Source: Escherichia phage 04086. From it: a DNA stretch of 64,000 nucleotides. The notes under the pieces are model-generated. The model was not told where the DNA came from. It did not search any database and worked only from the letters and a program-made list of their open reading frames with translations. This document shows, one piece after another, positions 46,235-61,478 of this stretch. The DNA is taken from the sequence record OR842557; one strand, written 5' to 3'. The position numbers and the translations under genes were made by a program. Positions within the stretch are counted from its first letter, which is position 1. The number at the start of each line of letters is the position of its first letter.

Positions 46235-46263
46235 GTTTACAAGGTCTATAGGCATGATACTAT
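46235..46263 (+). promoter_or_regulatory. Early promoter stem-loop cassette (GTTTAC-N17-TACTAT, palindrome GGTCTATAG / CTATAGACC)
   Basis: gtttacaaggtctataggcatgatactatagacc upstream of the ipI-locus gene. Confidence 0.55.
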
Positions 46264-46300
46264 AGACCTATCAAAACAAACTAACCGCACGGAAATCAAA

Positions 46301-46573
46301 ATGAAAACTTATCAAGAATTTATCGCTGAATCTATTCTTAATGAGGAAGTAAAAATTAACAAATCTGTTAAGACTATGATTGATGATATAAATCATCTCT
46401 ATAACATCGATTTGACTAATCACGTAACTTTAGGCAATAAGCGAAACTTTTTTGTATTTGATACTTCAGAACTCGACCAGAATCAAATTAACAATATTGA
46501 ACGTTTTGCTAATGAAAAAGGACTGCGTCACGAAACGGCTGGTTATAAAAAGTATGCAATTTATCTAAAATAA
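46301..46573 (+). CDS. Internal protein (IP) with N-terminal capsid targeting sequence, ipI locus
   Basis: N-terminus MKTYQEFIAE is the T4 internal-protein capsid targeting sequence cleaved by gp21 after Glu; 90 aa; directly after 57B as ipI in T4. Confidence 0.65.
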   Translation: MKTYQEFIAESILNEEVKINKSVKTMIDDINHLYNIDLTNHVTLGNKRNFFVFDTSELDQNQINNIERFANEKGLRHETAGYKKYAIYLK

Positions 46574-46575
46574 TT

Positions 46576-46605
46576 GTTTACAACGGGCTCTAGTGGTGAT
46601 ACTAT
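46576..46605 (+). promoter_or_regulatory. Early promoter cassette variant (GTTTAC-N18-TACTAT)
   Basis: gtttacaacgggctctagtggtgatactatagccc with internal palindrome. Confidence 0.5.
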
Positions 46606-46641
46606 AGCCCTATCAAAACAAATGAGTGATTGGAGAATAAA

Positions 46642-46827
46642 ATGAAACGTTGCGAATTAATTAGAAATGTTACTGCACTGGCCGCTGTTACTGCTTTTGG
46701 CTTTAGTATGTTTGCAGGATTCATGCTCGATATGCTTTCAACTTCCGAGAATATAATCTCTTTAGTAGTGGCATTTTTAATTGGTTCAATCTCTTTTGTT
46801 ATGGATAAAATCTCTAAAGGTGAATAA
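46642..46827 (+). CDS. Small hydrophobic (membrane) protein
   Basis: ORF 46630..46827; ATG at 46642 after RBS ggagaataaaATG; two hydrophobic segments. Confidence 0.45.
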   Translation: MKRCELIRNVTALAAVTAFGFSMFAGFMLDMLSTSENIISLVVAFLIGSISFVMDKISKGE

Positions 46828-47228
46828 TGAACGTTGAATATTATGTATATGCGGATTATGAAAATAATCCGTCTAAAGATGAAGATAACCGTTTAGGTGT
46901 TGATGCTTTTGAATCCCCTGCTGCAGCTTGGCAATGGGTTGAAAGTACTGATATTCCTTACCGTTATATTGAAGTGGTAGACCATGCAGGAAACAAGTAT
47001 CCTAAGGAAGCATATGTTCCTTCTGGAAAGGTAAATTTCCTTTTGTTCGCGGGTGATAACTACTATCCACGTGGTGGCTATACCGATTTAATCGCTAAAG
47101 CTGCCACTGAAGATGAACTACGTGAAATTGTTAAAGAAAACGAGAATAAGTTTCTTTACGGCTCCGATCGTTTTGACTGGTGGCAGATTGTTAATGCTAA
47201 TACCCATACTATTGTAGACGAGGGTTAA
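46827..47228 (+). CDS. Hypothetical protein
   Basis: 133 aa ORF with overlapping start (ATGA-type coupling). Confidence 0.5.
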   Translation: MNVEYYVYADYENNPSKDEDNRLGVDAFESPAAAWQWVESTDIPYRYIEVVDHAGNKYPKEAYVPSGKVNFLLFAGDNYYPRGGYTDLIAKAATEDELREIVKENENKFLYGSDRFDWWQIVNANTHTIVDEG

Positions 47229-47513
47229 ATGCTATACGTTAAGGTTACTAATCCAGAGAATGGATATAATTCAGACCAGGTTGCAGCAGAGTTACTGATT
47301 CGCAACTTTGGCAAAGATGCCGTGCTTGATGTTCAACAGGTTAATATTGGCCGTAGTTCAAGCGACGTTAAACTCAAAGTTAACGGCCAACGTTATAATT
47401 CTGTTAACTTTACTTTTTATACCGCAACTGAAAACGGATTGGTCGAATACGACATCTTTAAAAATCCTTTGAAGATTGCTTCTATTAAACTTGATTACAT
47501 TAATATGCTTTAA
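47229..47513 (+). CDS. Hypothetical protein
   Basis: 94 aa ORF with coupled start. Confidence 0.5.
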   Translation: MLYVKVTNPENGYNSDQVAAELLIRNFGKDAVLDVQQVNIGRSSSDVKLKVNGQRYNSVNFTFYTATENGLVEYDIFKNPLKIASIKLDYINML

Positions 47514-47636
47514 GAATTATGTGATATTATTACTCTATCATTAATACCCTCTATTACCAAAGGTTCTTCCCTCAAAGAACCTTTCATAATAGACAAGGTC
47601 TATTAATTAAACTTACTTTACTTAATTTTATTTGAG

Positions 47637-59318: not shown

Positions 59319-59678
59319 ATGAAAACTTACCAACAATTTATTACTGAATCTACTCAGCGCATTAACGAAGCTATGTCTCCTGAACAGTTGGCTAAAGCTA
59401 AAGAAGGGCTGAACCCGTCCGAAGTCTTTAAAGTTACAGGTAAAGATTTCTCTTCCATGGCCACTAACCAAAGTCTGGCTAAAGAACTTAAATCTAAATC
59501 TAACTTCATTCATGCTACATGGAATGGTGATTCTCTTACTTCAATAAGTGTGTACAATAAAAAAGGTCTCCTTAAGAGTTCTTATGGCGCGGATGCCATC
59601 CGTGTTTCTAAATCAGATTGGCATAAAAACACTACTAAAGCAGAAAAACCTCATAACCCGGCACTTGACCATCTTTAA
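59319..59678 (+). CDS. Internal-protein-like protein with capsid targeting sequence
   Basis: N-terminus MKTYQQFITE; 119 aa; RBS taaggaataatATG. Confidence 0.6.
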   Translation: MKTYQQFITESTQRINEAMSPEQLAKAKEGLNPSEVFKVTGKDFSSMATNQSLAKELKSKSNFIHATWNGDSLTSISVYNKKGLLKSSYGADAIRVSKSDWHKNTTKAEKPHNPALDHL

Positions 59679-59686
59679 GGAATAAT

Positions 59687-59944
59687 ATGAAAACTTACCA
59701 GCAATTTATCGCAGAATCCACTTTAGTTTCTAAACGTTGGAATATGATTGTAAACGTTAAACCTTCCGGCACTGAAGTTTCTATGGCCGACCCTAATGAT
59801 GACGAACTTGAGCACGCTTTTAGCTCTAAAGAAACTGACGAGAAAGTGGTTAAGCAACTGGTTGCTGATGCAGACCAACTTCGTAAAGTAGCAGATGTTG
59901 TTAAGCTGTTTACTAAGAAAGGTTTTAAACACGAAGAGCGTTAA
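59687..59944 (+). CDS. Internal-protein-like protein with capsid targeting sequence
   Basis: N-terminus MKTYQQFIAE; 85 aa; same RBS context as 59319. Confidence 0.6.
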   Translation: MKTYQQFIAESTLVSKRWNMIVNVKPSGTEVSMADPNDDELEHAFSSKETDEKVVKQLVADADQLRKVADVVKLFTKKGFKHEER

Positions 59945-60101
59945 TTAGCATTTTAAATGGGAGCAAGCTGGACCTCGCAATTCTGTGAGGGACTCCCGCC
60001 AACCTGTAATAAGGTCGAGCCCAAGTGCGGTAATGGGTAAATGCAGAAAGGGACGAATTAATGTGCCAAGGAATGGCCCCTCCACTTAAAAAGAGACAAT
60101 T
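59945..60101 (+). other. GC-rich structured non-coding segment (candidate small RNA or leader)
   Basis: 157 nt without ORF; nested inverted repeats (gggag..ctccc, cctcg..tgagg); GC content well above flanks. Confidence 0.2.
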
Positions 60102-60644
60102 ATGAAATTTTTAACCGGTAGTTATCTATCCCTGATGAATGCTTTTGCAAACCATTCTGATGCTAGAGTAGAACACATTTGTAATAGTGGGTTTTATGTA
60201 CCTGATTCACAAACCCTGTTTAAAGAATGCTGCACCTTAAAACTTGATGGTGGGCGCCAATCCGGTAAAACTAAAGCAGTATCCATTTTTGCCACAGAAT
60301 GGTTAGCTAATGGCGGCTCTATTGTTATTTTATCTAATAACACGGCATATGCCAATGTTTCGGCTAGTGCAATCCGAAAGGAATATTTTAATAACCATAC
60401 AGAAAGTATTAAGTACCGTTTGTACACTGATTCTGTTCGTAGTTTTATTGGTAATACTGCATGCAAATTCCGTGGATTATCGCTTTCACGTGTTCTGTAT
60501 ATAATTGATGAGCCTGTTAAAACACCTAATATGGATAAGATTTATGATGCCCATATAAAGGTGGTGCAACATTGCTGTCATGCATCATGTGTCGAAACCA
60601 ATCAAACTGCTCGTCCTCTGTTCTTTGTGATAGGAATGCAATGA
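60102..60644 (+). CDS. Small P-loop NTPase-like protein
   Basis: 180 aa; Walker A-like GGRQSGKT and Walker B-like VLYIIDEP. Confidence 0.45.
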   Translation: MKFLTGSYLSLMNAFANHSDARVEHICNSGFYVPDSQTLFKECCTLKLDGGRQSGKTKAVSIFATEWLANGGSIVILSNNTAYANVSASAIRKEYFNNHTESIKYRLYTDSVRSFIGNTACKFRGLSLSRVLYIIDEPVKTPNMDKIYDAHIKVVQHCCHASCVETNQTARPLFFVIGMQ

Positions 60645-60937
60645 TGACCGATGAAGAACTTTTTGAGTTCTGTTATTTCTCACGTAAGGTCCGAAGAGAG
60701 GACCTTACTGCAAATTTCGAATATGCTTATTTCTACCCGCTAGAATACGTGTTCATGACAGGGCCCTTTAAGGGCTCTCGTTTTAGATGTCATGCTCCTA
60801 GTATCCGATTAATGAAACAGGTTCCTTACTTCACTCTCGAGTTCATCTCAGGGCCTTGTAAGGGTATTATTACTCGTAGTCTCTTGACTTATGACCAAGA
60901 GATTCATATGATTTCTGACTGGAAAAAATATGTCTAA
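60641..60937 (+). CDS. Hypothetical protein
   Basis: ORF track 60572; ATG at 60641 overlaps the upstream stop (ATGA); 98 aa. Confidence 0.4.
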   Translation: MMTDEELFEFCYFSRKVRREDLTANFEYAYFYPLEYVFMTGPFKGSRFRCHAPSIRLMKQVPYFTLEFISGPCKGIITRSLLTYDQEIHMISDWKKYV

Positions 60938-61148
60938 ATTGACAATTGAAGGTTCTGAAGAAGCTCTGAAAAGATTTGTTGAATGGCTTAATGGACCAGG
61001 TGAACAAGACTTTCTGGAAGTCTGGGATGGCGGTCGGTGGAATGGTAAAGAAATGATTTACCCGACTACCTATATCTCCGTGCAAGGTTGGACTGAAGGC
61101 CTTCGTTTGGTAGAATATGATATCGCAACTGGCGAGGAAGTGAAATGA
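60930..61148 (+). CDS. Hypothetical protein
   Basis: 72 aa coupled ORF. Confidence 0.4.
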   Translation: MSKLTIEGSEEALKRFVEWLNGPGEQDFLEVWDGGRWNGKEMIYPTTYISVQGWTEGLRLVEYDIATGEEVK

Positions 61149-61423
61149 TTGAAGATATCAAGGGTTACAAACCACATACCGACGATAAAATCGGTAAAGT
61201 GAATGCTATTAAAGATGCCGAAATTCGGTTAGGGCTGATGTTTAAAGCTCTAGAAGAAGAACATGTTACCTATTATATGAACTTAGATACCGAAGAGGTT
61301 TCTGAACAAGAACTAGACCAGGCTCATGAACGCATTACCCAGATTCGTAATGCAATTGACCGTCTTAAAGAAGCTAGTATGTGGGCTTGTCGTTCTGTGT
61401 TCCAACCAGAAGAAAAGTACTAA
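61145..61423 (+). CDS. Hypothetical protein
   Basis: 92 aa coupled ORF. Confidence 0.45.
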   Translation: MIEDIKGYKPHTDDKIGKVNAIKDAEIRLGLMFKALEEEHVTYYMNLDTEEVSEQELDQAHERITQIRNAIDRLKEASMWACRSVFQPEEKY

Positions 61424-61427
61424 AGCA

Positions 61428-61478
61428 GTTTACATCTCCTGTAGACGTGGTACTATAGACCTATCAACTACAGGAGAT
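61428..61478 (+). promoter_or_regulatory. Early promoter stem-loop cassette, near-identical to 58812-58860
   Basis: agcagtttacatctcctgtagacgtggtactatagacctatcaactacaggagatta. Confidence 0.6.

Follow-up and report, generated by a model that had tools for sequence, protein, structure and literature searches.

Escherichia phage 04086 is represented by sequence record OR842557, and a 64,000-nt stretch of it (the window) was analyzed here with a view to a dispersed family of elements that a first-pass annotation of the letters had described as early promoter stem-loop (PeSL) cassettes of the T4 type. The window derives from a Dhakavirus, a JS98/JS10-like T4 relative in the Tevenvirinae, with patchwise identity of 88–97% to UGJNEcP3, WG01, QL01, LHE83, MX01, JS10 and Bp7 while being identical to none of these, and its early transcription runs along the plus strand. 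Nine of the elements lie between 44 and 64 kb, where the genes follow the order 57B, internal proteins, trna.4/.3/.2, tRNAs, e.8/e.7/e.6, small open reading frames (ORFs), e.2, nudE, e, denV, vs genes and regB, and this 57B-to-regB region is the counterpart of a classical hyperplastic T4 region. An Rfam search of the same 44–64 kb returned two tRNAs only.

The family is recognized by a 20-nt core, TACTATAGACCTATCAAAAC, which with its variable end reads TACTATAGACCTATCAA(AAC/CTA). Scanning the window for the core with up to 3 mismatches gives seven matches, all on the plus strand, where 0.01 are expected (0/100 shuffles). The core is exact at 11485, 46258, 49875 and 55359, carries one mismatch (A>C) at 46600, and at 58835 and 61451 has three, confined to the final 3 nt, so that CAAAAC becomes CAACTA. 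The first-pass annotation had all seven sites share GTTTAC-N17-TACTAT next to this core; the core holds at all seven, but the spacer is 18 nt at 11461 and 46576 (17 nt at 46235, 49852, 55336, 58812 and 61428), and GTTTAC stands at six of the seven, with GTGTAC at 55336. Searched with one mismatch allowed, GTTTAC-N17-TACTAT is matched five times in the window against 0.5 expected. Two further sites, 50183 and 50641, had rightly been set apart as structural variants, being GTTTAC-N18-TATTAT and GTTTAC-N18-TATAAT with the core absent, and to these we add a diverged copy, 59265, as well as an early promoter of the same build at 8717, both missing from the first-pass annotation.

The ten sites collected in Table 1 follow one build: an A/T-rich tract (the 25 nt upstream are 64–92% A+T), GTTTAC, 17–18 nt, TGn, TAyTAT, CCTATCAA with the predicted start, a Shine-Dalgarno sequence (SD) and ATG. 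TGn lies immediately 5′ of TACTAT in all seven core sites and is found in 8 of the 10 overall, and the −10 hexamers used are TAcTAT, TATTAT, TATAAT and TAGAAT. Every one of the ten is intergenic, between a stop codon and the next SD/ATG, and points in the direction of early transcription, which rules out the origin as conserved pieces of coding sequence that the first-pass annotation had kept in view. A generic sigma-70 scan is uninformative (65 hits against 60 expected), so that only the family-specific pattern discriminates these promoters.

Table 1. Early promoter elements of the window, all on the plus strand. Folding covers the stretch from the end of the −35 to the ATG, with z taken against shuffled sequence; MFE, minimum free energy; hairpin classes A and B are explained in the text.
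Site	Extent	−35	−10	Type and stem arms	MFE (kcal/mol)	z	Predicted start	ATG	Downstream genes and setting	Breakpoints
11461	11430..11522	11461-66	11485-90	exact core, no significant hairpin		−1.2	11497	11520	small ORF (phrog_6003) and GIY-YIG gene; flanking gp24 and gp23 on the other strand; orthologue in JS10 at 105217	
46235	46224..46303	46235-40	46258-63	class A, 46242-51 / 46260-69	−15.7	−5.8	46270	46301	Ip9-like internal head protein gene (N-terminus MKTYQEFIAE)	46215-23 and 46298-334
46576	46574..46644	46576-81	46600-05	class A, 46585-94 / 46601-10; core A>C compensated in spacer	−13.8	−2.3		46642	trna.4-trna.3-trna.2	46567-93
49852	49799..49918	49852-57	49875-80	exact core, no internal hairpin; preceded by U-tailed terminator hairpin 49799-49828		+0.3		49916	e.8 homologue	49906-22
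50183	50180..50240			core-less variant GTTTAC-N18-TATTAT; class A, 13-bp arms 50189-201 / 50208-220	−20.0	−4.8			e.7 homologue	
50641	50637..50716			core-less variant GTTTAC-N18-TATAAT; weak arms 50655-61 / 50670-76		−1.7			e.6 homologue	
55336	55324..55404	55336-41 (GTGTAC)	55359-64	class A, 55343-52 / 55361-70	−15.4	−3.7		55402	small ORF (phrog_6001), then e.2, nudE, HNH gene, e	none in comparison with 8 relatives
58812	58807..58871	58812-17	58835-40	class B, 58818-29 / 58851-62 (3′ arm contains SD AGGAG)	−19.8	−6.4	58847	58869	denV	
59265	59277..59321			diverged copy ATTTAC-N18-TGaTAGAAT-acttCTATCAAC		−1.8			internal-protein-like gene (MKTYQQF..., phrog_3966)	59276 and 59348
61428	61424..61487	61428-33	61451-56	class B, 61434-44 / 61468-78 (3′ arm contains SD)	−17.8	−4.6	61463	61485	regB	

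The genome-wide motif scan that had been suggested for this family, run on the complete JS10 genome, gives 24 copies of the core (up to 3 mismatches), all on the early strand, with two weak matches on the other strand, both within genes. The JS10 copies precede accessory ORFs as well as motA, alc, srd, sp, regB, denV, cef, frd.1-3 and nrdC.8/.10. The statement that each element precedes an accessory gene or small operon is therefore right in that the elements do stand intergenically before such genes, but the core is not peculiar to accessory-gene cassettes and is found before conserved regulators too. A core-independent scan yields ~45 promoter-like sites of the same build, and in most of these C(C)TATCAA lies at a fixed distance from the −10, placing an A 7 nt past the hexamer, the usual start position; from this we infer that transcription starts at that A (CCT-A-TCAA), which puts the predicted starts of 46576, 49852 and 55336 at 46612, 49887 and 55371. 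The core is thus a lineage-wide extended early-promoter consensus, reaching from TGn over the −10 and the interval before the start into the beginning of the transcript. Some JS10 early promoters, including the one before motA, have a spacer with TGCTTTA (the MotA-box core) in place of a hairpin arm (165654, 165309, 48838 and 48526 of the JS10 record, our loci L012 and L009; none in the window), and these are unlikely to be MotA boxes, lying 6–7 bp nearer the −10 than in T4 middle promoters and hence too close.

By short-query BLAST the core is present in 14–18 copies in Dhakavirus genomes, 5–8 in several other coliphage T4-like genomes, 1–2 in Tequatrovirus and 2–6 in Klebsiella and Enterobacter T4-like phages. 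None was found in 5,426 complete E. coli genomes, which rules out a host or plasmid origin of the repeat as far as E. coli genomes are concerned. T4 itself has promoters of the same build upstream of ipI, trna.4, e.8, e.7, e.6, denV and regB, so that seven of the nine copies in 44–64 kb stand at positions matching same-build T4 promoters. The T4 GenBank record has no promoter features annotated. The likeness is closest at denV, where the T4 promoter equals the 58812 sequence from the −35 through the SD except for three loop bases, and where the 70 nt upstream of the gene are 86% identical between T4 and the window as against 69% for the denV coding sequence. T4 early promoters are described in reviews as carrying, next to UP, −35, TGn and −10, additional consensus regions (Hinton 2010, PMC2988021).

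The inverted repeats around the −10 announced in the first-pass annotation are real at 46235, 46576, 55336, 58812 and 61428 and absent at 11461 and 49852; taken over all ten sites, the hairpin beats shuffled sequence at six (Table 1). In all hairpins the 5′ arm lies within the −35/−10 spacer, and two geometries are distinguished by the 3′ arm. In class A (46235, 46576, 50183 and 55336) this arm runs from inside the −10 to position −1 (AGGTCTATAG / CTATAGACCT), while in class B (denV 58812 and regB 61428) it is the SD region (ATCTCCTGTAG / CTACAGGAGAT). To place these stems in a wider context 251 unique elements were gathered from the window, JS10, eight Dhakavirus loci, T4 and 120 IMG/VR stretches. 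A stem score of at least 7 is reached by 45% of these when each spacer is combined with its own downstream part and by 12% when spacers are swapped, a control that replaced a fixed class A register test because the stems use several registers. The 58 distinct stems obtained comprise 28 of class A, 21 of class B and 9 with the 3′ arm in the 5′ untranslated region.

The arms change together. Compensatory class A arms are seen at 46576 (GGGCTCTAG/CTATAGCCC), in JS10 (AAGGCT/AGCCTT and TAGGGTA/TACCCTA) and in T4 (ATAGGGT/ACCCTAT at trna.4 and TGATGAGGTA/TACCTCATCA at ipI), so that 46576 and the T4 trna.4 promoter have different arm pairs with complementarity kept, and the T4 e.7 promoter forms the same hairpin as 50183 with compensatory changes. 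The regB orthologues in T4 and IMG/VR phages likewise retain the SD-pairing hairpin with differing arm sequences, the pair named above for Dhakavirus being replaced by TTTTCCTCTT/AAGAGGAGAA in T4 and by TTTCTCCTCTTTA/TAAAGAGGAGAAA in another lineage. Non-Watson-Crick pairs within stems are G·U in 10 cases, A·C in 1 and other in 3, as compared to 31 G·U and 16 A·C at the first position outside the stems, the bias toward G·U coming mainly from class A. Since transitions in a duplex would give G·T or A·C at similar odds, the excess of G·U points to pairing of the sense strand, most simply as RNA. The covariation of the arms from T4 to Dhakavirus and other genera shows that the hairpins are kept as structures by selection, and the pair counts, which come from related sequences, are suggestive of the sense strand.

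Because the 5′ arm is upstream of the element's own start site, the hairpin can form only in RNA that comes from upstream promoters. Predicted SD accessibility was compared between RNA starting at the predicted +1 and read-through RNA including 60 nt upstream, and in nine class B elements the SD is predicted to be free of pairing with a probability of 0.28–0.75 in the former and 0.00–0.01 in the latter (denV, 0.29 vs 0.00; regB, 0.65 vs 0.00). Class A elements give no SD-occlusion effect in the same prediction. RegB cuts unpaired GGAG of early SDs, its own included, and secondary structure protects from cleavage, so that class B pairing should shield the site on long transcripts. SD occlusion is the best reading of class B, the effect on translation being one that we would expect from these folds. 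Class A stands for a selected RNA structure exactly at the cassette boundary, which may work in attenuation, in processing or as a 3′ stabilizer. Taken one step further, the hairpins may be RNA switches rather than terminators, giving each cassette translational autonomy, a proposal that we put forward tentatively and hold at somewhat less than even chances. On its own early mRNA a cassette would have its SD free and its GGAG open to RegB, whereas on read-through RNA the spacer arm would pair with the SD, silencing the gene and shielding the site from RegB. If true, denV, regB and ~20% of early genes would be limited to the first minutes of infection, the switches would contribute from within to the shut-off of early protein synthesis, a process that is poorly understood, and it would be explained why promoter and hairpin move as one unit in module shuffling.

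The strongest rival to the RNA-level part of this account takes the stem-loops to be transcription terminators or attenuators that insulate the cassettes and act neither on translation nor on RNA cleavage. Such a function has been proposed for the PeSLs of RB49 and phi1, and the RB49 PeSL211/210 stem-loop, placed between a promoter and lacZ, cut expression as much as rrnB T1 (PMC2839356); moreover, a true U-tailed hairpin (49799–49828, z −2.3) ends 24 nt upstream of the 49852 −35, and in relatives one resembling it stands before the promoter downstream of rI.-1. The promoter-internal hairpins are of another make, however: a T-rich tail follows just two of the 28 class A stems and none of the 21 in class B, a terminator scan flags none of them, and they are not canonical intrinsic terminators by sequence. 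In addition, the 3′ arm of class B is the SD, and the SD-adjacent part of the arm covaries with the spacer, which a terminator would not need, and termination at each cassette would conflict with the long early T4 transcripts reaching gene e. We consider this explanation less likely than not, but a serious alternative.

The link to gene shuffling was addressed by local BLAST of window 44–64 kb against eight Dhakavirus loci, the comparison of cassette-flanked modules that had been advised at the outset. After setting aside two junctions due to N-joined duplications in the window, 38 breakpoint clusters were counted, 9 of which fall within the nine elements (~115 nt each, ~5% of the sequence; binomial p = 1e-4), and seven of the nine elements have at least one junction. 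The junctions themselves could be read. In the window and in Bp7 gene e is followed directly by denV, while in WG01, QL01, LHE83, JS10, MX01 and UGJNEcP3 ipIII (with or without ipII or an ORF) stands in between; the e 3′ end plus GTTTACATCTCCT runs into the ipIII promoter in LHE83 and into the denV promoter in the window and Bp7, which locates the crossover within the common 13 nt of −35 and 5′ arm. MX01 has an internal-protein leader attached at TATCAAAACAAA to the 46576-type promoter, and its trna.4 stands behind a T4-like one. JS10 misses the e.8 cassette, with the 49852-type promoter fused to the e.7 homologue inside the SD (GGAGA; junction 49922/50227). At the 5′ edge of the regB cassette QL01 and ESCO10 carry an additional ORF (inserted at 61421), WG01 carries one at 46221, and several ip-gene junctions occur within the first ~30 nt, which encode the conserved N-terminus MKTYQEFIAE. 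The shuffling link drawn in the first-pass annotation is thereby supported. Window elements have exact runs of 17–30 nt in common, and within subfamilies 60–65 nt at ~90% (58812 and 61428 share 60 of 64 nt); with such runs the cassettes may well serve as homology patches for recombination.

Not all plasticity in the region is PeSL-linked. A homing-endonuclease gene with HNH and NUMOD3 domains (57594–58346, plus strand) stands between nudE and e, and another homing-endonuclease gene (61951–62685, plus strand, phrog_655) between regB and vs.1; both are absent in 8 of 8 Dhakavirus relatives and neither is flanked by a promoter cassette. Further element-independent differences are changes within the tRNA block and coding sequence that diverges in patches.

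A second rival holds that the invariant core 3′ of the −10 (AGACCTATCAA), the palindromes, or both, constitute a DNA site for a phage protein, candidates being a factor that shuts off early promoters and a recombinase directed at the cassettes. Conservation of the core goes further than sigma-70 recognition would require, early-promoter shut-off is called poorly explained in reviews, which also ascribe additional consensus regions to T4 early promoters, and a stem-loop-binding protein was speculated on by Arbiol et al. (PMC2839356). As shown above, though, the arms vary in sequence and stay complementary, so that structure is kept and not sequence, and tolerance of G·U but not of A·C speaks against a duplex-DNA site. 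The core itself varies at the regB promoter orthologues of other genera (CTACACC, TTATATCA and CCTACAAA). Crossovers occur at scattered points (−35/5′ arm, core 3′ end, SD, first codons), which is not the pattern of site-specific recombination, and no recombinase gene is associated with the elements; we regard a protein-binding site of this kind as improbable. Still less probable is a recently spread mobile repeat resembling a miniature inverted-repeat transposable element, whose copies would be alike through transposition or gene conversion rather than as selected promoters: near-identical cores within one genome, 14–18 copies in Dhakavirus against 1–8 in other genera, and subfamilies such as 58812/61428 would fit, but the coincidence of seven of nine copies with promoters of T4, a phage of another genus, the single orientation with fixed distance to SD and ATG, the lack of terminal repeats, target duplications or transposase, and the absence from E. 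coli genomes do not.

We therefore consider it likely that the sites are strong immediate-early Dhakavirus promoters, with a hairpin in about half of them, that double as homology patches for module exchange. They would be read by unmodified host sigma-70 RNA polymerase, and in about half of the promoters the spacer has its complement further downstream. A class A hairpin, ending at the start site, would set a stable fold where two cassettes meet; a class B element would let its gene be translated from its own early transcript and keep it silent on read-through, with the paired GGAG shielded from RegB; and between the repeated cassettes the phage recombination system would delete, insert or swap modules. 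Several points weigh against this account or parts of it. Promoter activity and start site are predicted from the consensus and from T4 orthology. At four of the ten window sites no hairpin reaches significance, and a hairpin is hence unnecessary for promoter function. The G·U and A·C counts derive from related sequences and are small, and class B taken alone has no bias; also, SD access in the short denV RNA is moderate (0.29). Some excess of breakpoints in promoters would arise in any case, as surviving indels must be intergenic, and with the null raised to 12% its p becomes 0.03. Finally, some junctions, as at the e.8 cassette, have just 5–6 nt of SD homology, and the two homing-endonuclease indels are not at elements.

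A number of further observations concern the window and its relatives. Between gp24 and gp23 a GIY-YIG homing-endonuclease gene (11790–12461, plus strand; SegE-like by a weak Pfam match) follows the small ORF under the 11461 promoter, and JS10 has the promoter and the small ORF with the endonuclease gene absent. U-tailed terminator hairpins lie at 48453–48481 (repeated at 48662–48690), 49799–49828 and 49197–49222; two of these are paralogous (AGCCCCTTCCGAAAGGTTGGGGCTTTTT and AGGCCCTTCCGAAAGGTTGGGCCTTTTTT), with a compensatory stem change between them, and that at 48453–48481 precedes gene 48731–49195 (MKTYNEFL start, phrog_2280), which has no GTTTAC promoter. Adjacent small ORFs at 52826–53023 and 53033–53245 (plus strand) are apparently tandem paralogues, and ~165 bp are missing here in Bp7, WG01, QL01, LHE83 and MX01, with UGJNEcP3 collinear with the window. 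Runs of N occur at 375–377, 2162, 20349, 40323 and 48638–48640, the preceding 191–394 bp being directly repeated after each (for example 48433–48637 again at 48641–48846), and single N are also present at 7026, 20069, 40062 and 45752, the last with a duplication of ~98 nt revealed by comparison with relatives. These N-flanked direct repeats look like assembly artefacts, contig ends having been joined with the overlap unmerged, and they give false duplicated ORF starts, such as 6922 and 7142. In the ESCO10 locus (L008, OM386655.1) deposited product names are displaced relative to the genes, for example with terminase small subunit given to the gp2 homologue and 'putative baseplate hub' to that of regB, and this annotation is unreliable.

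With this analysis the early transcription units of a Dhakavirus segment so far lacking annotation are precisely mapped, and PeSLs are now documented, by junctions read directly, in a fourth T4-like lineage. It adds the core as a lineage-wide consensus, the two hairpin geometries, the evidence from covariation and G·U bias for sense-strand structures selected to act on read-through RNA, and the concrete hybrid junctions. A simple rule for early-only translation, open to testing, is suggested by the SD-pairing class, and the cassettes mark safe cut-and-paste points for the engineering of accessory modules in therapeutic T4-like phages.

PeSLs were described in RB49 and phi1 as intergenic composites in which an A/T tract and a sigma-70 promoter are combined with an SD, an ATG and a stem-loop that takes any of five positions; these genomes have ~50 each, enriched near differential ORFs and with crossovers inside, mini-circles were detected by inverse PCR, and PeSL-like sequences in JS98 were noted as well (Arbiol 2010, PMC2839356). 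The Dhakavirus elements are the same composite cassette, present by the dozens per genome, all in early direction and associated with indels, with the stem-loop between or overlapping −35 and −10, the two commonest positions in RB49 and phi1, and with crossovers likewise between −10 and ATG or within the stem-loop. They differ in their hexamers, GTTTAC/TAcTAT with a conserved start-site block where RB49 has near-perfect TTGACA/TATAAT, and in their stems, which are of mixed sequence without a U-tail and not G-run/C-run; also, terminator activity and mini-circles were shown by experiment for RB49, whereas the window elements are known from their sequence. The accessible parts of Arbiol et al. 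2010 do not describe the SD-pairing geometry or covariation for RB49 and phi1. PeSLs were subsequently reported in T4/PST (TTTACW-N17-TAYWAT) and nt-1/KVP40 and tied to the older internal-protein locus shuffling by Comeau et al. 2014 (PMC4122927). The window hexamers fit the T4/PST consensus, and TGn, the UP-like tract, the extra consensus regions and the orthologous positions agree, the T4 denV promoter having the same −35, arms, core and SD with a 3-nt loop difference. Unlike T4/PST, the present phage is of a different genus with a more uniform core at 14–18 copies per genome versus 1–2 close Tequatrovirus matches, and most stem-loops are inside the promoter, while the T4/PST figure legend (PMC4122927) places them just upstream.

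Two older T4 systems complete the comparison. In T4 e, soc, 49 and I-TevI a promoter lies inside a hairpin that sequesters the ribosome-binding site, the 3′ arm containing the SD; long transcripts are silent, the internal-promoter transcript alone is translated, and synthesis is late-only (PMC3014915). Class B elements have the same arrangement, the promoter between the hairpin arms and the SD in the 3′ arm with predicted occlusion, but their internal promoter is early (−35 GTTTAC) and not late (TATAAATA), with early-only synthesis predicted, so that they would work like this family without being members of it. The gene shuffling known from the internal-protein locus of T-even phages (Repoila et al. 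1994, cited in PMC4122927 and PMC2839356) has, as far as these citing papers convey it, its like in the window relatives, where ip genes downstream of 57B and around denV differ and the junctions fall in the shared promoter and first ~30 nt (MKTYQEFIAE). The match to T4-type PeSLs given in the first-pass annotation thus agrees with the published anatomy, the T-even consensus and the T4-orthologous positions; the finding is real, was correctly interpreted and will not surprise a T4 specialist, SD occlusion being the sole part of the analysis with some novelty. By every feature that sequence can display, the elements are further members of the PeSL kind.

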